Shown: positions 556-58,750, counted from the first letter of the stretch. The stretch: 64,000 nucleotides of DNA from Gammaproteobacteria bacterium (GCA_018674175.1 JABHAT010000001.1:7787-71786); one strand, 5' to 3'. The notes: a model not told the origin generated them from the letters alone. Program-made: numbers and translations.

Positions 556-584
556 TTGAATGAACAGCTCACTATCCCTATAAT
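556..584 (+). promoter_or_regulatory. Sigma-70 type promoter for the gltB leader: -35 TTGAAT (556-561), 17-bp spacer, -10 TATAAT (579-584)
   Basis: Near-consensus hexamers at optimal spacing. The predicted transcription start near 591 lies immediately before the riboswitch-like element. Confidence 0.6.
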
Positions 585-592
585 AAGGTAAT

Positions 593-641
593 ACGTTCAT
601 CCTAAGGGACGGAAGTAGGCTGAAAAGCTGAAGGAACGCAC
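593..641 (+). promoter_or_regulatory. Glutamine riboswitch aptamer (glnA RNA motif) in the gltB 5' leader
   Basis: The sequence ACGTTCATCCTAAGGGACGGAAGTAGGCTGAAAAGCTGAAGGAACGCA has a closing helix CGTTC (594-598) / GAACG (634-638). It carries the conserved strands GGACGGAAGTAGG and TGAAGGAACGC as I recall them for the glnA motif, plus a variable CC..GG hairpin and a GCT-GAAA-AGC hairpin. It sits upstream of a glutamine-consuming enzyme gene. Confidence 0.75.
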
Positions 642-666
642 CAAACTTTAAGCCTAGAGTTTGGTG
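639..666 (+). promoter_or_regulatory. 9-bp hairpin abutting the aptamer 3' strand; possible expression platform
   Basis: CACCAAACT (639-647) pairs with AGTTTGGTG (658-666) around a 10-nt loop. No U-tract follows, so it is not a classical terminator. Confidence 0.4.
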
Positions 667-711
667 AAATTATCATCAAATTCAAGGTAAGTTAAAATAA
701 CATAAACTTAT

Positions 712-3700
712 TTGAGTATGAAAGAGAAAAACAAGAAAATTACTGGTTTATATGATGAAAGCTTTGAAAAAGATAGCTGTGGCTTCGGATTAATAACTAA
801 TGTTGATGATAAGCCTAGTCATTGGTTAATTAGTACTGCAATCACAGCACTTGAAAGATTAGCTCACAGAGGAGCTGTTGGTGCTGATGGTACTTCTGGC
901 GATGGATGTGGAATATTATTTAAAACACCTGAATTCTTCTTTCGATCTATAGCTAATGAGCATAAATTTAATTTATCTAAAAATTTTGCTATAGGAATGT
1001 TTTTTCTAAATACTGATATAGAAAAAAGAAAATCTTCAATCAAAATTGTTGAAAAAATTATAAAAGAACATAATTTTATTTTAGCCGGCTGGAGAGAAGT
1101 CCCAACAAATCAAGATATTTGTGGTGAAGATGCTCTGAAAACTTTGCCATATATTAGCCAAGCATTTATAAACCCATCAGAAAAAGTTGATGCTAAGGAT
1201 ATAGAATCTAAACTTCTTGTTATAAGAAGAAAAATAGAAATAGCAATTTCAAGAACTGATGATGATATATTTTATATTACTAGTTTGTCTTCAAAAGTAA
1301 TTTTATATAAAGGCATGATAATGCCAAAGCACCTTTCAAAATTTTATTTAGATCTTTCAAATGAGAAACTTGAAACTTCTTTATGTGTTTTTCATCAAAG
1401 ATTCTCAACAAATACAACTCCTCAATGGAGCTTAGCTCAGCCATTTAGAATGCTTGCGCATAATGGCGAAATTAATACCATTAGAGCTAATAGAAATTGG
1501 TCGCAAGCAAGATCTAGTATATTCAAGACTTCAAAAATTCCAGAACTTAGTGAGTTAAAACCTCTTGTTTCTATGGGAGGCTCTGATTCAAAAAGTCTTG
1601 ATAATATGTTGGAAGTTTTGACGCTCGGTGGCGTTGATTTATTTAAAGCAATCAAATTACTTATTCCGCCAGCATGGAAAAGCATTTCTGAGAATGATCC
1701 AGATTTGAGAGCATTCTATGAATATAATGCAAAACATATGGAGTCCTGGGATGGTCCAGCAGGAATAGTTTTAACAGATGGAAGGTACGCGGCATGCGTA
1801 ACTGATAGAAATGGATTGAGACCAGCCAGATATATAATTACTAAAGATAGACACATTACCGTGGCCTCTGAAATTGGAGTTTACGATTATGATGAAAAAA
1901 ATATTATCAAAAAAGGGAAGCTAGGCCCAGGACAAATTATCGCTATAGATACACTAGAAGGCGAAATTTTATATTCAGAAGATATCGATAATATTCTTAA
2001 AAAAAGATGTCCTTATAAAGAGTGGATGGATGTTGGTGCAGAATCCATGAGAAGAATAATACCTGATAAGTTTCCAGGGCTAGAGTTTCTTAACGAATCT
2101 GAGATTAGACAATATGAGAAGATGTTTAATGTTACATATGAAGAAAAAGATCAGATCCTAAAGCCTCTTTCGAAATTAAGTCAAGAAGCTATAGGTTCTA
2201 TGGGTGACGATACTCCTTTTCCAGTTCTTTCAAGTGAAATAAGATCTTTGTATGATTATTTTAGGCAGCAATTTGCTCAAGTAACGAACCCTCCAATAGA
2301 TCCAATAAGAGAAAGCAATGTTATGTCGCTAGAAACTTATCTTGGGCCAGATTTAAATGTATTTGAAGAAGGCTCAAAACATGCACATCGACTAACAATA
2401 GAATCTCCAATTTTATCTTATAGGAAATTTAATCAGCTTCAGGAACTTAAAAATAAAAAATTTACTTACAAAATTTTAGACTTAAATTATGAAAGTGAAT
2501 CTAGTCTTACAGATGCAATTAAAGATCTAACAAAAGAAGCTATTTCTGCAGCTAAAAATAACAAAGTGTTTTTGATCTTAAGTGATAAAAATATTAAAAA
2601 AGGCAAAATCCCTATTCATGCACTTCTTGGAACTGGGGCTGTGCACCATGCTTTAATTAAAAATGGTTTAAGAACTAAAGTAAATATTATAGTTGAAAGT
2701 GGGACCGTTAGAGACTCTCATCACTGCGCAGCATTAATTGGTTATGGAGCAACTGCAATATATCCCTACTTAGCTTATGAATCATTAAATAATATGATAA
2801 TTGATAGATCAGAAAACAATTCAGAATTCTTTGAAGCAACTAGAAATTATAGGCAAGGTATCAATAAAGGTTTATATAAAATTTTATCAAAAATGGGAAT
2901 TTCAACTATTTCTAGTTACAGAGGATCACAATTATTTGAATGTGTTGGCTTGAATCAAGAAATTGTAGATTTATGCTTTTGTGACACTACAAATAGATTA
3001 TCGGGCACAACATTTAATGATCTCCATAACGACCAAATACAATTAGCAAAAAATACTTGGAGCCATAGAAAAAATATTAAACAAGGCGGTCTACTAAAAT
3101 ATGTTCATGGTGAAGAATTTCATGCTTATAATCCTGATGTTGTAAAAACTCTTCAGGATGCTGTCAAAAGTGGTGAATACAAAGACTATGAAAAATATAG
3201 CGAAATAGTGAATCATAGAGAAAAAATGGTTATAAGGGATATGCTTGAATTTAAAAGTTCCAAAAAACCTATCCCATTAGACCAAGTAGAGCCTATAGAA
3301 AATATTCTTTTAAGATTTGATTCGGCTGGCATGTCATTAGGTGCTTTATCTCCAGATGCTCACGAAACTTTAGCTCAAGCAATGAATAAAATGGGTGGCA
3401 GGTCAAATTCAGGCGAGGGCGGAGAAGATGAAAGAAGATTTAATACTGATAAAAATTCTAAAATCAAACAAGTAGCTTCAGGAAGATTTGGGGTTACACC
3501 ACATTACTTAGTAAATGCAGAAGTGATTCAAATTAAGATAGCTCAAGGTGCTAAGCCTGGTGAAGGTGGACAGCTACCTGGTGATAAGGTTGATAAACTT
3601 ATTGCGACTTTACGATATGCAAACCCTGGTATAACTTTAATATCTCCCCCACCTCACCATGATATTTACTCTATAGAAGATTTAGCTCAGCTTATCTTTG

Positions 3701-5190
3701 ATTTAAAACAGGTAAACCCCAGTGCTTTTGTTTCAGTTAAATTGGTAGCTGAAGCTGGAGTAGGAACTATAGCTGCCGGCGTTGCCAAAGCATATGCGGA
3801 CTTTATTACTATATCTGGTTACGATGGTGGAACTGCTGCCAGTCCTTTATCAAGCATAAAGTATGCTGGTGGTCCTTGGGAAATGGGCCTATCTGAAACA
3901 CACCAAACTTTAAGAGCAAGTAATTTAAGAAAAAATGTTAGATTACAAGCAGATGGAGGATTGAAAACTGGTCTGGATGTAGTTAAAGCTGCAATCTTAG
4001 GAGCAGAAAGTTTTGGTTTTGGCACAGGTCCGATGATAGCAATGGGATGTAAATACTTAAGAATATGCCATTTAAATAACTGCGCAACTGGTGTAGCTAC
4101 ACAGAATCAGGTTTTAAGAAAATATCATTTTATTGGTAAAGATGAAATGGTAATAAATTATTTTAAATTTATTGCTGAAGAAACTAGAAATATTTTAGCT
4201 TCATTAGGGTACAAGAAGCTATCTGATGTTATTGGTCAAACTAGTATTCTTAAGATTAAAAAATTTGAAACTGGAAAATTGAGAAATTTAGTAATAGACC
4301 CAATAATATCTGACGCTAACGTTGATAAAGATGTTGCTCATATGTGTCAGGTGAAAAATAATGAACCTTGGGATAAAGCTGTCTTATCAAAAATAATTGA
4401 TAAAGATATAAAAAATGCTGTTGAAAATAAAATTGGTGGTGATTTTAATTATAATATTAAAAATACAGATAGATCGGTTGGAGCAAGTTCATCAGGTATG
4501 ATTGCAAGAACTCATGGGAATTATGGTATGTCAGAAAATCCAATCAATATTCATTTTAAGGGTACTGCAGGACAAAGTTTTGGAGTTTGGAATGCTGGCG
4601 GATTAAATCTAACTTTAGAAGGAGATGCTAATGATTATGTCGGCAAAGGAATGGCAGCAGGTCAAATAACAGTATATCCTCCAAAAGATACAAGCTACAT
4701 AGCTAAAGAATCCGTAATTATTGGAAATACTTGCATGTATGGAGCAACAGGTGGGAAATTATATGCATCTGGAATTGCAGGAGAAAGATTTGCTGTAAGA
4801 AATTCTGGAGCTACAGCAATTGTTGAGGGCGTTGGCGACCATGGTTGTGAATATATGACTAATGGCGTCGTAATAATTCTCGGCAAAACTGGTGTTAATT
4901 TTGGGGCCGGAATGTCAGGTGGTTTCGCGATGGTTTTAGATGAAGATGATAGCTTTAAAAATAAATATAATTCTGAATTAGTAGAAATAATAAAAATAGA
5001 TAAAAGAAAATATCCAAATCAAGAAACGTACTTAAAAAATTCTATTATGGATTACGTTGATAAAACCAATAGCGTGTGGGGTAAAACTATCTTAGATAAT
5101 TTCGACAATTATATTGATAAATTTTTAATTGTGAAACCTAAGGCTATAAATATTGAAGAACTATTTAATAAAAGTAGTGTTGCCGCATAA
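712..5190 (+). CDS. gltB: Glutamate synthase (GOGAT) large subunit
   Basis: The 1492-aa ORF has the N-terminal amidotransferase Cys in the SCGFGL context. It also has the HQRFSTNT and HNGEINT motifs, an FMN/Fe-S central domain (SNSGEGGED, KIAQGAKPGEGG) and a C-terminal GXGXG domain. The ORF-track start is a TTG at 712; the ATG at 718 is an equally plausible start. Confidence 0.95.
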   Translation: MSMKEKNKKITGLYDESFEKDSCGFGLITNVDDKPSHWLISTAITALERLAHRGAVGADGTSGDGCGILFKTPEFFFRSIANEHKFNLSKNFAIGMFFLNTDIEKRKSSIKIVEKIIKEHNFILAGWREVPTNQDICGEDALKTLPYISQAFINPSEKVDAKDIESKLLVIRRKIEIAISRTDDDIFYITSLSSKVILYKGMIMPKHLSKFYLDLSNEKLETSLCVFHQRFSTNTTPQWSLAQPFRMLAHNGEINTIRANRNWSQARSSIFKTSKIPELSELKPLVSMGGSDSKSLDNMLEVLTLGGVDLFKAIKLLIPPAWKSISENDPDLRAFYEYNAKHMESWDGPAGIVLTDGRYAACVTDRNGLRPARYIITKDRHITVASEIGVYDYDEKNIIKKGKLGPGQIIAIDTLEGEILYSEDIDNILKKRCPYKEWMDVGAESMRRIIPDKFPGLEFLNESEIRQYEKMFNVTYEEKDQILKPLSKLSQEAIGSMGDDTPFPVLSSEIRSLYDYFRQQFAQVTNPPIDPIRESNVMSLETYLGPDLNVFEEGSKHAHRLTIESPILSYRKFNQLQELKNKKFTYKILDLNYESESSLTDAIKDLTKEAISAAKNNKVFLILSDKNIKKGKIPIHALLGTGAVHHALIKNGLRTKVNIIVESGTVRDSHHCAALIGYGATAIYPYLAYESLNNMIIDRSENNSEFFEATRNYRQGINKGLYKILSKMGISTISSYRGSQLFECVGLNQEIVDLCFCDTTNRLSGTTFNDLHNDQIQLAKNTWSHRKNIKQGGLLKYVHGEEFHAYNPDVVKTLQDAVKSGEYKDYEKYSEIVNHREKMVIRDMLEFKSSKKPIPLDQVEPIENILLRFDSAGMSLGALSPDAHETLAQAMNKMGGRSNSGEGGEDERRFNTDKNSKIKQVASGRFGVTPHYLVNAEVIQIKIAQGAKPGEGGQLPGDKVDKLIATLRYANPGITLISPPPHHDIYSIEDLAQLIFDLKQVNPSAFVSVKLVAEAGVGTIAAGVAKAYADFITISGYDGGTAASPLSSIKYAGGPWEMGLSETHQTLRASNLRKNVRLQADGGLKTGLDVVKAAILGAESFGFGTGPMIAMGCKYLRICHLNNCATGVATQNQVLRKYHFIGKDEMVINYFKFIAEETRNILASLGYKKLSDVIGQTSILKIKKFETGKLRNLVIDPIISDANVDKDVAHMCQVKNNEPWDKAVLSKIIDKDIKNAVENKIGGDFNYNIKNTDRSVGASSSGMIARTHGNYGMSENPINIHFKGTAGQSFGVWNAGGLNLTLEGDANDYVGKGMAAGQITVYPPKDTSYIAKESVIIGNTCMYGATGGKLYASGIAGERFAVRNSGATAIVEGVGDHGCEYMTNGVVIILGKTGVNFGAGMSGGFAMVLDEDDSFKNKYNSELVEIIKIDKRKYPNQETYLKNSIMDYVDKTNSVWGKTILDNFDNYIDKFLIVKPKAINIEELFNKSSVAA

Positions 5191-30917: not shown

Positions 30918-33374
30918 CTATAATGGAGATTCCGTAACTTCAATTTTCGGTTTTTTCTTTTTAACTACAGCTTTCTTTTTAACTACTTTCTTTTTAACTA
31001 CTTTCTTTTTAACTACTTTCTTTTTAACTACTTTCTTTTTAGCTCCAAATCTTCCTCTTTTAGCTGGAGCATTTTCTATCATTTCTTCGCATTCAGCTAA
31101 TGATAAATCTTTAGGGTCTTGATCTTTTGGCACCTTAACATTTTTATTTCCATCAGTTACATATGGACCAAACCTACCATTTAAAACCTGAATTCCTTTC
31201 TCTTCAAAATCTTGAATTACTTTATTAGCTTCAATTATTTTTTTCTGCTCTACAAGTGGTAGTGCCTGCTCAAATGTTATTGTGTATGGGTCAAATGGAT
31301 TGTCGCCTTTCTCTTCCAAACCTTTTAAAGATAAGTTTTTCTTTTCCCCATAATTTAGGTATGGTCCAAATCTTCCCAAGCATGCGGTTATATGCTCGCC
31401 ATCTGGAGTTTCACCAAGTAATCTTGGTAGAACAAATAAATCCATAGCATCTTCTAAAGTAATTGTGCCAATATCTTGTCCTATTTTTAGTGATGCAGAC
31501 TTAGGTTTTCCAGCTTCCTTAGGGTCGTCTTTTGTGCCAATCATTGCATGAGGTCCGAAGGGTCCATGCCTCACACTAACTGTTCTTCCGCTTTTAGGAT
31601 CTAATCCTAGTATTCGTTCTTGCTTTCTTTCCTCGGGAGATAATTTTTCTGTCTCCCCAACCATTTGCGTAAGATCTTTATAAAATGAATCCGTCGTTGG
31701 CACCCACTCTACTTCACCTCTAGCAATCTTATCTAAAGTTTCTTCTAATTCTGCTGTGTAGTTATATTTTATAAAATTATTAAAATTTTTATCTAAGAAT
31801 GCGCATGCAGAAGAACCCTTACCAGTAGGAGTTAAAGTTCTATTCTCTACTTCAACATATTCTTTATATCTAAGTGTTTCGATGATAGCAGCATATGTTG
31901 ACGGTCTGCCGATACCTTCTTTTTCTAAATTCTTTATTAGGCTAGCCTCTGTGTATCTTCCTGGTGGCTGAGTAAAATGTTGAACTGCATCCAATTTTTC
32001 AAGTTGAACTATATCTCCTTCTTGCATTATAGGTAGTATTTTTGATTCAGCTTCTAAATCTTCTTCATCAGAACCCTCTAAATAAACCTGCATAAAACCA
32101 GGATGTTTTATAGATTGGCCAGTCGCTCTAAAAAAGTTTTCACTTGTCCCAAGATCTATTGAAACTGAATCTAAGATCGCATCATTCATTTGCGAAGCTA
32201 CTGTTCTTTTCCAAATTAAAGAGTAAAGATCAAATTGATCTTTACTTAAATACTTTTTCACATCTTCTGGTTTTCTCTCTAATGATGTTGGTCTAATTGC
32301 CTCATGCGCTTCTTGAGCATTTTTTGAAGTATTAGAATATTTTCTTACTTCGCTAGGCAAAGATTCATCACCATACAACTTGGGAATAATTTTTCTAATT
32401 TCTTCAATTGCTTCTTGGGCCAAATTAATCGAATCTGTTCTCATATATGTTATCAATCCAGCTGCACCTTCGCCTATATCAATACCGGTATATAATTCTT
32501 GGGCAATACCCATTGTTCTTCGTGCAGCGTACCTTAATTTCCTTGAAGCTTCTTGTTGAAGAGTCGAAGTAATGAATGGTTTTGCTGGTTGTCTTTTTCT
32601 TTCTTTTTTCACAACCTTTAATACTTTAAAACCTTTATCTGATTCTTCTAATATTTCATTTTTAATTCTTAAAGCGTCTTTTTCATTTTCTATATCAAAT
32701 TTAGCTAATCTTTTACTATTTGAATTATGTAAAAATGCTTCGAAAGGTTTATTATCTTTTAAAAGATTTGCATTTAGTGTCCAATATTCTTGAGGGATAA
32801 ATTTTCTGATTGCCTCTTCTCTCTCTACAATCATTTTCAAAGCTGGGCTCTGAACTCTTCCTGCTGATCCTTTTCTTATACCAATACCCCATAACAATGG
32901 CGATATTCCCATTCCAAATAAATAATCTATTGATCTTCTAGCAAATTGTGCATTAATAAGATTATAAGAAAGTTCTCTAGGATTCTCTATAGACTGCAAG
33001 ATAGCTTTTTTTGTTATTTCGTTAAAAACTATTCTTACTACCTCAATTCCAGCTAAGGCTTTTTCTTTTTCTAAAATATCAATAAGATGCCAAGCAATAA
33101 CCTCACCTTCTCTATCTTGATCAGTGGCCAAATAAAGCTTTTTTGCATTTTTTAAAGCTTTTTTTATATCACGGATTATTTGTTGAGGTTTATTATGATC
33201 TCTTTCTATAAGCTCATAATTCATTTGATAGTTATTATCTACATCTATACCTTGTTTTGATGGTAAATTTCTCAAATGACCAACTGTAGATATTACTCGG
33301 TAGTTTTGACCCAAATATTTTTCTATAGTTTTTGATTTTGCTGGTGACTCAACAATTACTAAATTTTCACTCAT
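30918..33374 (-). CDS. topA: DNA topoisomerase I, with a cysteine-free C-terminal repeat domain and a Lys-rich tail
   Basis: It has a Toprim domain (LVIVESPAK...ATDQDREGE) and an active-site region (TYMRTDS). Three GRFGPY-type C-terminal repeats are present, followed by the KKKVV x4-5 tail. The likely start is MSENLVIVESPAK at 33374; the track start is 33395. Confidence 0.93.
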   Translation of the reverse strand: MSENLVIVESPAKSKTIEKYLGQNYRVISTVGHLRNLPSKQGIDVDNNYQMNYELIERDHNKPQQIIRDIKKALKNAKKLYLATDQDREGEVIAWHLIDILEKEKALAGIEVVRIVFNEITKKAILQSIENPRELSYNLINAQFARRSIDYLFGMGISPLLWGIGIRKGSAGRVQSPALKMIVEREEAIRKFIPQEYWTLNANLLKDNKPFEAFLHNSNSKRLAKFDIENEKDALRIKNEILEESDKGFKVLKVVKKERKRQPAKPFITSTLQQEASRKLRYAARRTMGIAQELYTGIDIGEGAAGLITYMRTDSINLAQEAIEEIRKIIPKLYGDESLPSEVRKYSNTSKNAQEAHEAIRPTSLERKPEDVKKYLSKDQFDLYSLIWKRTVASQMNDAILDSVSIDLGTSENFFRATGQSIKHPGFMQVYLEGSDEEDLEAESKILPIMQEGDIVQLEKLDAVQHFTQPPGRYTEASLIKNLEKEGIGRPSTYAAIIETLRYKEYVEVENRTLTPTGKGSSACAFLDKNFNNFIKYNYTAELEETLDKIARGEVEWVPTTDSFYKDLTQMVGETEKLSPEERKQERILGLDPKSGRTVSVRHGPFGPHAMIGTKDDPKEAGKPKSASLKIGQDIGTITLEDAMDLFVLPRLLGETPDGEHITACLGRFGPYLNYGEKKNLSLKGLEEKGDNPFDPYTITFEQALPLVEQKKIIEANKVIQDFEEKGIQVLNGRFGPYVTDGNKNVKVPKDQDPKDLSLAECEEMIENAPAKRGRFGAKKKVVKKKVVKKKVVKKKVVKKKAVVKKKKPKIEVTESPL
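30963..31040. repeat. 15-bp tandem repeat (AACTACTTTCTTTTT x4, plus an 18-bp variant) inside the topA 3' end
   Basis: Perfect units lie at 30981-30995, 30996-31010, 31011-31025 and 31026-31040. On the minus strand they are in frame and encode the KKKVV repeats. Confidence 0.95.
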
Positions 33375-33412
33375 ATTTAAATCCAACTCTGGCAAAACTA
33401 TCTATTAATAAT

Positions 33413-46111: not shown

Positions 46112-46175
46112 TTTAAAATCCTATTTTCCACTGTTTCTATACTTATTATATTAACACTTTATTATAATTTTCTTC

Positions 46176-46205
46176 AAAAAAAAACAGGCGCCATTACAGC
46201 GCCTG
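46176..46205 (-). terminator. Rho-independent terminator of the major porin gene
   Basis: On the minus strand, CAGGCGC-TGTAATG-GCGCCTG is followed by nine T residues. Confidence 0.85.
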
Positions 46206-46233
46206 CTCTTATAATACAAAATTCTAATAAATA

Positions 46234-47550
46234 TTAGAACATTGTTAATATACCAAATTGGATAATTTCAACTTGGTTATTAGTTGTACCAGATCCTAGA
46301 GCACTGATACCAGTTCCGTAAGCACCATGCTCATCATTTTCAACTTCGATGTACGATACGTTTAGTTCTGTTGAATCACCTAATGCATAGAACACACCAA
46401 ATAATGTTGTGTCAGCACCAGTTGTCGCAGAGTTATCTGTTGATAAACCTGTTGCAGACATATCTAATTCATCAGCTTCTGCGTACATGAAACGGAAGTC
46501 AAAGTTTCCACCTGGAGCATATTTACCAGAAACTAAGAACGCGTCACGATCAAATTTAACGTTTGTATTAGCTGTACCACCTGCAAATACTGAACTAGCA
46601 AAACCGAAGTCTTGTAATGCAGCACCTGGAGTTGTTACGTTTTTAAACTCATATTCAACATTTTCAAACATAGCAGATAAAGTCAAGCTCGCTCCATTAC
46701 CTAAATCAGCAATGTAACGTGCTGCTATTCTGTAAGATTCAGCTTCTGAATCTGACATTGTAGCGCCGTCTAGTTTTGTTGCTGCCCACTCATCATGTTT
46801 CTGATAAGTTAAAGCACCCCAGAAAGGACCGTCTGTGTAAGCAATACCCATAGAATAAATCACTGGGTCAGTTTTCACGCTGCCTCTTGCTGAAGTTGCA
46901 TCTGTTTTGTTATCAGCTGTCATAGCAAATCTATAAGATAGTTTGCCTGAAGAACCCATATATTGAAGGATTTCTTCTTGACGTCTGTTGAAGCCCATGT
47001 TGTAGATCCCACCATAAGCACTATAAGATGTGAATGTTTGTGAACCAAAATCTCCTAAGTTATAAAAGATTGTGTATGCACCAACAGAACCCATAATGTT
47101 TGTGTGAGAAGCTGAACCAGCGTCATACCATGGATCAACCCAACCAGCTACCATTTCGTTGTAAGGTAATAACCAGTTAGCGAACATTATTTCACCAAAT
47201 GATCCTGAAATACCTACTTTAGAGTTACGGTTACACCAACCACCTGTTCCAGCATAGTCGTTCATGTATGTGAACTGTTCACAACGCCATGTAACTTTTA
47301 AGCCTTCGATTCCTGTATCAACGAAACCAAGAAAACCAATGTTACCAGCATTACCATTAATCATAGTTCTATCAACTTGCGAACCTTCCGCACCTGATTC
47401 AACTATTTCATAGGTATGATTTTGCCAACCGTAGATTGTAATTGGATCCCCGTAAGGTCCAACTCCACCGCCGCCCCAGCCTGCGTTTGCAGTAACTGGA
47501 AGCATGGCCAATGCTCCGGCTAGCATACTTGCTAAGATTTTTATTTTCAT
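46234..47550 (-). CDS. Gram-negative general porin family outer-membrane protein
   Basis: It has a signal peptide (AMLPVTANA). It is rich in Gly and aromatic residues with an alternating pattern, and ends in the C-terminal Phe of GILTMF. G+C is elevated and it has a strong terminator, suggesting high expression. Confidence 0.8.
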   Translation of the reverse strand: MKIKILASMLAGALAMLPVTANAGWGGGGVGPYGDPITIYGWQNHTYEIVESGAEGSQVDRTMINGNAGNIGFLGFVDTGIEGLKVTWRCEQFTYMNDYAGTGGWCNRNSKVGISGSFGEIMFANWLLPYNEMVAGWVDPWYDAGSASHTNIMGSVGAYTIFYNLGDFGSQTFTSYSAYGGIYNMGFNRRQEEILQYMGSSGKLSYRFAMTADNKTDATSARGSVKTDPVIYSMGIAYTDGPFWGALTYQKHDEWAATKLDGATMSDSEAESYRIAARYIADLGNGASLTLSAMFENVEYEFKNVTTPGAALQDFGFASSVFAGGTANTNVKFDRDAFLVSGKYAPGGNFDFRFMYAEADELDMSATGLSTDNSATTGADTTLFGVFYALGDSTELNVSYIEVENDEHGAYGTGISALGSGTTNNQVEIIQFGILTMF

Positions 47551-52706: not shown

Positions 52707-56137
<3,431 letters not shown>

Positions 56138-56139
56138 TC

Positions 56140-57252
56140 TTACAGCCTCAAAGGCATTACCACATAGCTTGACGAGTTGTCGTTTTCTGGCATTAAAAGA
56201 GCGCTACTATTCGCATCTTTAAGCGAAATCTGAACATTTTTTGTTTTAATGACGTTAAGAACATCTATTAGATAATTCACATTAAAACCTACCTCTAAAG
56301 GTTCTCCGTTATAAGTTGCCTTGATATCGTCAGAAGCTTCTTCTTTTTCCGGGTTATTAGCACTAACGCCGATTTCATTTTCTAGAAAGTTTAGTCTAAC
56401 ACCTCTAAATCTATCGTTAGACAATATAGAAACTCTTATCAAGGCCTCTTTGAAAGATTTGCAGTCTACCGTCACGGTTTTATCAGTGTCTGAAGGAATA
56501 ACTCTAGTGTAGTCTGGGAACTTGCCATCAATTAACTTAGAAATCGCTTGCGAATGATTATTCTTAACCTGAAGATGATTCTTAGAAAGAATAGCTTTAA
56601 TCTCCTCTTCCTCAACAAGCTGCTTATCTATTTCAATTATTCCTTTTCTTGGCACAATCGCGTTAGCAGAGGGTAAAGAAATCCCGGTTTTAGTAGCTGC
56701 GCCAGCTTTTGCTAGTCTATGACCATCAGTAGCCACTCCAAAAATCTCCTCTTGCGATATGTTTAAATATAAACCATTAAGATAATACCTAACATCTTGT
56801 TGCGCCATTGCGAAAGATGTTTTTCCAATAATATCTTTAAGATTTTGAGACTTAAAAGAAAATGGAATGCTATTTTCGTCAGTAGTGTCCATTATTGGGA
56901 ATGTTCTTGCGTCCAGCGCAGAAAGAATAAATTTGCTTTTTTTAGATTTTATTTGAATCTTATTCTCATCTTCAAGATTTATTTCTAATATAGATTCGTC
57001 TGGCAAACCTTTTCCAATATCGAAAAGTTTTCTTCCTGGAATAGTTACATCGCTTGTAAAATCAGAACCAGCTTCCAAAGTCACCGAACAAGATAATTGA
57101 ACCTCGAGATCAGAAGCAACTACTTCGTAAGTATCGTTATTCTTTCTAAAAAGAACGTGACTCAAAATTGGCATTGTTTGTCTTTTCTCGACAACCCCGA
57201 TTACTTTTTGTAAACTTTTTATTAAGTTTTCTTTAGTTATTATTATTTTCAT
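56140..57252 (-). CDS. dnaN: DNA polymerase III beta sliding clamp
   Basis: It is 370 aa, begins MKIIITKENLIKSLQKVIGVVEKRQTMPILSHVL, and ends PLRL. Confidence 0.96.
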   Translation of the reverse strand: MKIIITKENLIKSLQKVIGVVEKRQTMPILSHVLFRKNNDTYEVVASDLEVQLSCSVTLEAGSDFTSDVTIPGRKLFDIGKGLPDESILEINLEDENKIQIKSKKSKFILSALDARTFPIMDTTDENSIPFSFKSQNLKDIIGKTSFAMAQQDVRYYLNGLYLNISQEEIFGVATDGHRLAKAGAATKTGISLPSANAIVPRKGIIEIDKQLVEEEEIKAILSKNHLQVKNNHSQAISKLIDGKFPDYTRVIPSDTDKTVTVDCKSFKEALIRVSILSNDRFRGVRLNFLENEIGVSANNPEKEEASDDIKATYNGEPLEVGFNVNYLIDVLNVIKTKNVQISLKDANSSALLMPENDNSSSYVVMPLRL

Positions 57253-57436
57253 ATTATATATATAGTTATTATAACTAACCCCTTTTTCTGTTTATATAGC
57301 TAAAAAATCTTATTAATACAATAATTTAAAACATTATTAACCTGTTAGTAATTATTTTAAAACTGTTGTCTATATTTATTATTTATAGATATACATTTTT
57401 ATTAGATAATTATATACAGGTTCTTAACATATCAAA

Positions 57437-58750
57437 TTATGTGCTTAAAGCCCTTCTTAAATTTATCAAATCTTCCTTAATCTTGTTATCTGTTAAACAT
57501 AACTCGGTTATTTTTTTACATGCATGTAGTACAGTCGTATGATCTCTTCCCCCAAATGCATCTCCAATTTCTGGCAAACTATGGCTGGTCAACTCTTTTG
57601 CTAGAGACATTGCAAGTTGTCTAGGTCTCGCTAAAGAGCGATTTCTTTTTGCTGACAAAAGTTCAGACATTCTTATTTTGTAATAACTTGCAACAGTTTT
57701 TTGGATATTATCAATAGTAACCATTTTGTTTTGCAAAGAAATAAGGTCGCGCAAGGCCTCTTTGGCAAAACTTAAAGTTATTTCTTTGCCTGTAAACTGG
57801 GAATTAGCAACAACTCTTCTAAGGGCCCCTTCAAGCTCTCTTACATTAGATTGTATGCATCTTGCTATAAAAAAAGCCACATCTGTATCTAATTCTGTTC
57901 CGATAAAGGCCGCCTTTTTTTTGAGAATAGCAACCCTAGTTTCTAGTTCCGGAGGTTCAATTGACTGTGTTAAACCCCATCCGAACCTTGATTTAAGTCG
58001 TTCATCAAGACCGTTAACTTCTTTGGGATATCTATCGCATGTTAAGACGATTTGGCATTTTCCTTCTAGGAGCGTATTGAAAGTGTGAAAAAACTCTTCT
58101 TGAGATCTTTCTTTTCCAGCAAAAAATTGAATGTCATCAATCAAAAGAGCATCTGCAGATCTGTAATATTCTTTAAAAGAATCAATTTTGTTGTGTTGAA
58201 GAGCTCGCACCATGTCCGCAACAAATTTTTCTGAGTGAAGATATAGTATTTTAGCGCTCTTATTATAATTTAATATATTATTACCAATAGCGTTCATTAA
58301 GTGGGTTTTTCCTAAGCCAACGCCCCCATATATAAAAAAGGGATTATAGTTTTGACCAGGATTACTCGATACTTGCATTGCTGCTGCGCGAGCTAGCTCG
58401 TTAGATTTGCCAGTAACAAAATTATCAAATGTAAAATCTGATGAAAATTTTGAGTTATTACTAAAATCTGTTTTCTTATCTTCCTCGATACTTGTATTAA
58501 TTGCAGCTAATTTCTGTGAAATTCCGCCAACTTCAAAATTAAAACTATATTCAGAGTCCTCAAGACGCTTTAAAAAATAACTACTAAGATTTTCGTTTGC
58601 CCAATCGACAGCATACTGATTTGGAGCAGTAATTTTTATAGTTTTATTTTGTGTTATAGCTTGAAGAGGTCGAACCCAGGTATTAAACTGTTGTTCATCA
58701 AAATTATTTTGTAAGTCGACAAGACATTGTTCCCAGAATTCTGGCTGCAT
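57437..58750 (-). CDS. dnaA: Chromosomal replication initiator protein DnaA
   Basis: It has an AAA+ Walker A ([16 protein letters not shown]) and a domain IV ([15 protein letters not shown]). Confidence 0.98.

Follow-up and report, generated by a model that had tools for sequence, protein, structure and literature searches.

The gltB gene of the analysed DNA, a 64,000-nucleotide stretch referred to here as the window, was found to be preceded by what is almost certainly a canonical type-1 glutamine riboswitch aptamer (592-642, + strand), for which glutamine binding is predicted. The gene encodes the large subunit of glutamate synthase, and gltD, the gene of the small subunit, is unlinked to gltB and was found to have its own copy of the leader in at least three related contigs. 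Based on these leaders and their relatives, direct RNA sensing of glutamine may co-ordinate both unlinked glutamate synthase genes in streamlined marine Gammaproteobacteria, through leader copies that evolve in concert and through an undescribed relay platform; for this reading as a whole, the chances are put slightly below even. The aptamer class and its link with glutamate synthase are already known, from metagenomes since 2010, and what is added here is the clade of the host, control duplicated on the two unlinked subunit genes, and the putative relay platform. In practical terms, the novelty is modest: the aptamer is a canonical one, which every annotation pipeline using Rfam would pick up. 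If the reading is true, the published exclusivity of glutamine riboswitches to cyanobacteria would be wrong, and abundant heterotrophs would be the source of the 'orphan' metagenomic glnA RNAs beside nitrogen genes, one of them being an alphaproteobacterial group that has tandem aptamers upstream of amt.

The glutamine aptamer and the gltB locus

A glnA RNA aptamer had been proposed at this site in the first-pass annotation on account of its conserved helix and purine strands. When the covariance-model check was run, the Rfam glutamine riboswitch model (RF01739) matched 592-642 (+) over its full span (positions 1-53 of 53) with 56.0 bits, 21 bits above the gathering score of 35, and an E-value of 1.2e-9. 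No second RF01739 copy was found in the 64-kb window, even in a permissive scan (E up to 1), and the type-2 glutamine riboswitch (Downstream-peptide motif, RF01704) gave no match in the window at E up to 1.

The sequence that follows the promoter and 9 nt is CGUUCAUCCUAAGGGACGGAAGUAGGCUGAAAAGCUGAAGGAACGCACC. A three-stem junction was confirmed in it, in which P1 (CGUUC/GAACG, 594-598 with 634-638) encloses two short hairpins, P2 (600-602 with 607-609) and P3 (618-620 with 627-629), all on the + strand and placed by the Rfam alignment. The three stems were also recovered unprompted by RNAalifold from 15 leaders, among which the first P3 pair differs (G-U, G-C or A-U). The junction strands ACGGAAGUA (609-617, +) and GAAGGAAC (630-637, +), corresponding to the ligand pocket and E-loop of the class, contain no mismatch and are invariant across the 15 leaders.

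According to the secondary descriptions of the Ren 2015 structure given in PMC11477058 and PMC6212724, glutamine inserts the junction nucleotide G23 at the base of P1, and its pairing partner there is C60, just 3' of P1. Based on the Rfam alignment and these descriptions, G612 (+), the second G of the junction CGG, is the probable equivalent of G23 and would, in the glutamine-bound state, be the partner of the linchpin C. Both linchpin nucleotides, G612 and C639, are present at the sequence level, and formation of the pair is predicted. The linchpin C is kept in 17 of 18 leaders. The exception is the leader of locus L009 (about 1859-1914), in which a U replaces the linchpin C (GGAACGUACC); its aptamer still scores 56.5 bits, and the hairpin that follows the aptamer is retained there, closed by a U-G pair.

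The sigma-70-type promoter TTGAAT-17-TATAAT claimed earlier is present at 556-584 (+), where it matches 10 of 12 consensus positions. Its -10 hexamer ends 9 nt before P1, and the aptamer lies 8 nt after the promoter. The match is weak on its own, because a scan of 300-900 gave 5 sites of such quality against 3.3 expected; conservation of the two hexamers in the leaders of 13 gltB orthologues and of 3 gltD genes speaks in its favour. The downstream gene was correctly recognized as gltB: an open reading frame of 1490 amino acid residues (718-5190, +) matched NF008730 with 2426 bits against a cut-off of 1047, and in the alignment its ATG at 718 coincides with the orthologous starts. The aptamer lies on the gltB strand, downstream of the promoter and 75 nt upstream of the start codon, and it is highly likely to regulate gltB in cis.

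The gltB gene is flanked by the 3' end of a dGTPase gene (stop at 388) on its 5' side and by dnaG and rpoD on its 3' side. Neither gltD, amt nor a glutamine synthetase gene was found in the window, and no gltD adjoins gltB. The GC content of the window is about 30%. A permissive SD-like 4-mer was found upstream of just 12 of the 47 window genes, and the genome appears to lean mostly on SD-independent initiation; given so few SD-like motifs, the accessibility of start sites should matter in this genome.

Several other features of the window were recorded. A perfect tandem repeat of TTTTAATGAT (9.6 copies, 420-515) occupies part of the intergenic region bounded by the dGTPase stop (388) and by the gltB promoter (556), and it was found in none of 15 related loci. 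A 15-nt tandem repeat of TTTCTTTTTAACTAC (5.7 copies, 95% matches) at 30954-31041 falls within the 3'-terminal part of the topA open reading frame (30918-33395, - strand) and would encode a repeated 5-residue unit at the C-terminus of topoisomerase I. At 46170-46280 (-), the L20 leader model of Rfam was matched below its threshold (26 bits against 58.7), essentially through a GC-rich hairpin and a U-tract just upstream of the open reading frame 46234-47550; this element is probably only the terminator of the neighbouring gene. The region 52707-58750 (-) contains gyrB (790 amino acid residues, family-library match) followed by three open reading frames assigned to recF, dnaN and dnaA by order and size alone. 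This arrangement places a replication origin probably near 58.8-59.1 kb.

Host lineage, conservation and the gltD leaders

The host is an uncultured AT-rich marine gammaproteobacterium. A search with GltB residues 1-400 against one genome per species returned 29 loci, of which 15 are close relatives (75-88% identity) and 14 are Perlucidibaca or Paraperlucidibaca (about 52% identity). All the close relatives are MAGs or SAGs of uncultured marine bacteria, under the label Gammaproteobacteria or 'Thiothrix sp.', and some have contigs of about 1.1 Mb. Among the best 120 matches listed for the window GyrB, relatives at 78-99% identity are followed by two clusters at 64% and then, at about 58%, by Thiolinea, Thiothrix, Chromatiales, Methylococcales and others. 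The gammaproteobacterial type of genome proposed from the sequence is borne out by these GltB and GyrB relationships. SAR86 was considered as the host and is not supported, as no SAR86-named GyrB occurs among the best 120 matches and the next clades, at about 58%, are Thiotrichales- or Chromatiales-like.

Of the 15 close relatives, 13 have an Rfam match to the aptamer (55.3-60.8 bits) at the equivalent position, and none of the 14 distant Perlucidibaca-type gltB loci has one. The two close relatives without it, L008 and L014 (GltB identity 84% and 75%), have a short leader in which a TTGAAC..TATACT promoter is retained (about 2380-2500), so that the aptamer must have been gained or lost within the clade.

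The gltD leaders, of which that of L138 was located by a pattern scan of metagenomes, comprise the promoter, the aptamer and the pairing strands A, B and C described below, and they were found at 2644-2689 of contig L138, at 2879-2923 of L150 (a 177-kb contig) and at 1815-1865 of L151. In L138, the open reading frame beginning MKNAMQFLDIKREEP...RCLNCGNPYCEWKCP is gltD. From the aptamer to strand C, the L138 gltD leader is 96.8% identical to the gltB leader of the window, with 3 differences in 93 positions. The L151 gltD leader is closest to the gltB leader of L011 (92.7%, next best 86.5%), and that of L150 is closest to the gltB leaders of L003, L004 and L029. Paralogous leaders are thus closer within a presumed species than orthologous leaders are between species, which suggests, on leader identity, that the gltB and gltD copies evolve in concert. 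The gltD contigs and the gltB loci come from different samples, and from the identity of the leaders we infer that both are carried in one genome.

A decaying or chance aptamer-like match that has no regulatory role would be in keeping with L008 and L014, in which the aptamer is lacking and the promoter remains, so that the element is dispensable in some genomes. That explanation is very improbable, given a full-length match at E 1.2e-9, scores of 55-61 bits kept in 13 relatives despite diverged flanking spacers, and a duplicate aptamer before gltD with an identical platform.

In the metagenome scan, the genes downstream of the aptamer were gltB, gltD, amt, a gene for a glutamine synthetase N-domain protein, and genes for a TonB receptor and an amidase. 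In six contigs (L072, L102, L113, L114, L133 and L149), a type-1 aptamer is followed in tandem by a slightly divergent second aptamer (UCGGAAGUA) upstream of amt; these amt genes encode about 430 amino acid residues and lie on contigs of 27-34% GC with very high microdiversity. The amt loci were considered as a wider regulon of the same clade, and this was rejected. The closest named Amt is from 'Alphaproteobacteria bacterium' (93%), and the tandem-aptamer amt loci are therefore ascribed to a different heterotrophic lineage. In the group of contigs L050, L122 and L126, type-1 aptamers precede the genes for a glutamine synthetase N-domain protein (in tandem), a TonB-dependent receptor and an amidase, and the amidase gene lies 315 nt downstream of tandem aptamers.

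Predicted expression platform and the sign of the switch

The expression platform had been called not obvious in the first-pass annotation; in terms of predicted folds, it can now be described as a competition among three strands, A, B and C. In the minimum free energy (MFE) fold, strand A (CACCAAACUUUA, 639-650, +) and strand B (UAGAGUUUGGUG, 655-666, +) form hairpin 1, with 12 bp and the loop AGCC. The hairpin noted earlier at 639-666 is thus present and is no terminator, but it has 12 bp and not 9. Its first nucleotide is the linchpin C639 itself, which follows P1 without a linker. A terminator-type (transcription-attenuating) platform was rejected, since no intrinsic terminator (GC-rich stem and U-tract) was found in 300-900; the sequence after hairpin 1 is AAAUUAUCAUC.

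Strand C (CAUCAAAUUCAAG, consensus CAUCAAACUCU; 674-686, +) is a near-copy of strand A, and it has two alternative partners, strand B or the start-codon region. In constrained folds, the alternative B:C hairpin (652-688, +) is formed by 657-666 with 674-683 (10 bp) and 652-655 with 685-688 (4 bp); in the window it contains an A656/A684 mismatch, and it excludes hairpin 1. In the MFE fold, strand C is part of hairpin 2 (C:D, 676-721, +), in which 676-678, 680-686 and 688-693 pair with 719-721, 711-717 and 705-710, respectively, covering GAG 714-716 as well as U719 and G720 of the AUG. The small hairpin previously placed at 688-711 exists as the inner part of this fold, but the whole is larger and includes the two start-codon nucleotides. 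The MFE fold of 590-740 contains hairpins 1 and 2 and has a z-score of -4.19.

Over 14 distinct leaders, A:B pairing amounts to 98.8% and B:C pairing to 84%, against at most 50% for B:C in slid registers. The B:C helix has 12-14 bp in most orthologues; by a shuffle test, P=0.043 was obtained for the 10-bp match of the window and P=0.0004 for the 13-bp match of L010. The orthologue alignment shows hardly any variation in strands A, B and C, as expected of strands with two partners, and the loop of hairpin 1 and the spacer from strand C to the AUG are variable. Since the strands hardly vary, no covariation above controls was found for A:B or B:C among the 14 distinct leaders, and none supporting C:D, so that the argument for the platform rests on conserved complementarity and energetics. 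The two states, A:B with C:D and B:C, differ by -2.1 to +8.9 kcal/mol across the leaders, and B:C is the unconstrained MFE structure in L005, L011 and L029.

The duplex of strand C with the start region, compared with shuffles, gave a mean z of -0.98, with p<=0.05 in 3 of 16 leaders and p=0.21 in the window. In most orthologues the initiation region offers strand C a partner, in a register that differs among them, and in some orthologues the freed strand A is itself able to pair with the start region. The C:D pairing, weakly supported, is accordingly kept here as a tentative inference from the folding model.

Two further candidates in this part of the leader were rejected. The complementarity of 651-656 (AGCCUA) to the 5' strand of P3 (616-621) is limited to window-like leaders, the hairpin-1 loop varying elsewhere, and a short GUG-initiated upstream open reading frame (664-690) has an unconserved frame and stop because of a 1-nt indel in the spacer.

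Other natural leaders of the type were analyzed in a set of 111 distinct type-1 leaders from marine metagenomes, the counts being those among the matches listed. A helix starting at the linchpin C was found in 79 of the 111 leaders, and in 71 of the 111 this helix has at least 5 bp, its 3' strand carrying an SD-like motif and, no more than 16 nt away, a start codon; CACCUAACUUUAAAAGGAGGGUGUUAUG is typical of such direct-SD leaders. The gltB and gltD leaders, with a linchpin helix of 11-12 bp, are among the 8 of 79 exceptions in which no SD or start adjoins it. In the window, no direct anti-SD platform was found, as neither an SD-like motif nor the gltB start lies beside strand B, the AUG being 52 nt further. 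Because the gltB and gltD leaders have the linchpin helix with no adjoining SD or start, strand B looks like a decoy.

Based on these pairings, a four-strand relay acting at translation initiation, with glutamine as the ON signal, is proposed; as a model, it is held to be somewhat more probable than not. When glutamine is absent, strand A (from C639) and strand B would form hairpin 1, and strand C, left free, would fold on the start-codon region as hairpin 2, giving poor initiation. When glutamine is bound, C639 would be pulled into the long-range G612-C639 linchpin pair, which would strip hairpin 1 of its closing pair, and the freed G666 could nucleate pairing with C674. Strand C would then oust strand A from strand B, and the resulting B:C hairpin would leave the start codon open, so that the output of glutamate synthase would go up as its substrate glutamine accumulates. 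In this scheme, strand B would serve as a decoy for the SD strand, strands C and D would pass the signal on, and the two extra inversions of the relay would preserve the sign of the direct platform.

The coupling of the linchpin to start-codon access was analyzed by partition-function calculations, in which P1 was enforced and of which the energy model ignores aptamer tertiary structure and coaxial stacking. When the equivalent of C639 alone was barred from pairing, 8 of 18 leaders went over from an A:B to a B:C ensemble, the A:B probability falling, for example, from 0.96 to 0.26 or from 0.86 to 0.06. In the window, barring C639 alone lowered the A:B probability from 1.00 to 0.95, and four nucleotides were needed. 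When CACC was blocked, the B:C probability was at least 0.91 in 17 of 18 leaders and 0.42 in L009. The mean unpaired probability of the AUG region then increased in 10 of 16 distinct leaders (in the window, from 0.23 to 0.63), was unchanged in 6, and decreased by more than 0.02 in none.

The ON expectation of the first-pass annotation is plausible and is tentatively preferred here. It is preferred because the tested members of the class are ON and most type-1 leaders put an SD-hiding helix at the linchpin C, and induction of glutamate synthase (GOGAT) by its own substrate is sensible. OFF also fits the physiology: with aptamer and strands unchanged and the sign reversed, translation of glutamate synthase would fall at high glutamine and rise under nitrogen limitation. 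Glutamine could act in this sense by stabilizing P1, with hairpin 1 stacked on P1 and staying closed, and P1 has been described as stabilized by the ligand (PMC11477058) while hairpin 1 abuts P1 without a linker. Alternatively, glutamine-driven B:C pairing could remove a single-stranded, CA-rich strand C that aids ribosome loading on an SD-poor leader; as C:D is statistically weak, strand C need not be the sequestor. In SAR11, nitrogen limitation raises the levels of GltB and GltD protein post-transcriptionally, their mRNA being unchanged (PMC3870248), and in marine contigs rich in AT the aptamer class is also found before amt and glutamine synthetase genes, for which repression by glutamine would be intuitive. 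Against these points, both experimentally tested glutamine riboswitches activate expression (PMC6212724; PMC6316151), the linchpin-C helix hides the SD in 71 of 111 natural leaders among the matches listed, which is sensible only if the ligand opens the helix, and the B:C state in silico never reduces the accessibility of the start site and usually increases it. An OFF switch is accordingly considered unlikely, at about one chance in four.

The ON relay would act on initiation; a functional aptamer with another read-out was also weighed, in which the change from A:B to B:C would alter mRNA decay (e.g., at an RNase E site) or Rho-dependent premature termination, hairpin 2 being incidental. This would suit a leader that has no intrinsic terminator and no clear SD, in which C:D is weakly supported and which is AU-rich and G-poor over 667-717. 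It is considered improbable, since nothing was found that points to a rut or a cleavage site, strand C has a partner in the initiation region in most orthologues, and related leaders with a direct-SD platform work at the level of translation.

Comparison with known glutamine riboswitches and related leaders

Previous studies have described glutamine riboswitches as restricted to cyanobacterial genomes (PMC6212724, by Klahn et al. 2018, in which they are said to occur exclusively there; PMC6316151), with links to core nitrogen genes found just in environmental DNA of uncultured strains. This distribution was described correctly in the first-pass annotation, but the link with glutamate synthase is older than was implied there (Weinberg 2010, PMC2864571; PMC8632094).

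Copies outside cyanobacteria, among streamlined marine heterotrophs as here, have been reported from two sources. Glutamine riboswitches occur in the genomes of the OM43 phage Melnitz and the Pelagibacter phage Mosig, which are phages of marine heterotrophs (PMC9004378), and these copies adjoin tmRNA or small ORFs, unlike the placement before gltB and gltD found here. RF01739 matches in deletions of SAR86 MAGs appear as a one-line annotation with no gene context in the available part of PMC12379486. Within what is accessible of the two papers, neither describes control of gltB or gltD or an expression platform.

The gltD motif of Negativicutes (PMC8632094) is likewise a structured leader directly before a glutamate synthase gene, in which a hairpin occludes the RBS and glutamine is the suspected ligand; unlike the leader analyzed here, it has an unrelated fold, belongs to another phylum and has an unproven ligand. 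The Synechococcus crystal structure (Ren 2015, as described in PMC11477058 and PMC6212724) shares the three-helix junction, with G611, G612 and C639 of the window as the likely counterparts of G22, G23 and C60, a numbering taken from the Rfam alignment. An isolated aptamer was crystallized in that work, whereas the present analysis concerns a full leader.

The closest functional parallel is gifB of Synechocystis sp. PCC 6803 (PMC6212724), which shares the RF01739 family, a position in the 5' UTR of a nitrogen-assimilation gene, and a platform helix that starts from the C following P1. In the model proposed by Klahn et al., linchpin pairing melts the helix in which the conserved C and the nucleotides after it are paired to the ribosome-binding site, and the mode of action of the class was called 'unclear' in 2018 (PMC6212724). 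The 71 SD-hiding linchpin helices among the 111 leaders (matches listed) agree with this model, for a switch that is experimentally ON. Since the mutually exclusive helices are anchored on the linchpin C and so many natural leaders hide the SD in this way, the linchpin-melting model is directly testable. For gifB, translational action has been proposed and the ON response shown experimentally, in line with the reading proposed here. The post-linchpin strand of gifB is proposed to pair with the RBS directly, and in the window it would pair with the decoy strand B, with a relay through C and D. Furthermore, gifB encodes a glutamine synthetase inactivating factor, whereas the gene here encodes the enzyme GOGAT, and the host is a gammaproteobacterium.

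Streamlined ocean heterotrophs are known to dispense with protein regulators, as SAR11 is without PII and NtrBC (PMC3870248), and RNA sensing of glutamine may belong to nitrogen control in such abundant organisms. The glnA RNAs of marine metagenomes (Weinberg 2010, PMC2864571; RF01739), for which the distribution was given as 'Cyanobacteria, marine' and the associated genes include those for glutamate synthase, PII, glutamine synthetase and ammonium transporters, have the identical motif and the same association with glutamate synthase. Unlike those representatives, which come from anonymous reads, the gltB and gltD cases described here belong to a defined gammaproteobacterial clade with genome context, and the window and its relatives thereby supply a host and a genomic setting for orphan nitrogen-gene riboswitches.
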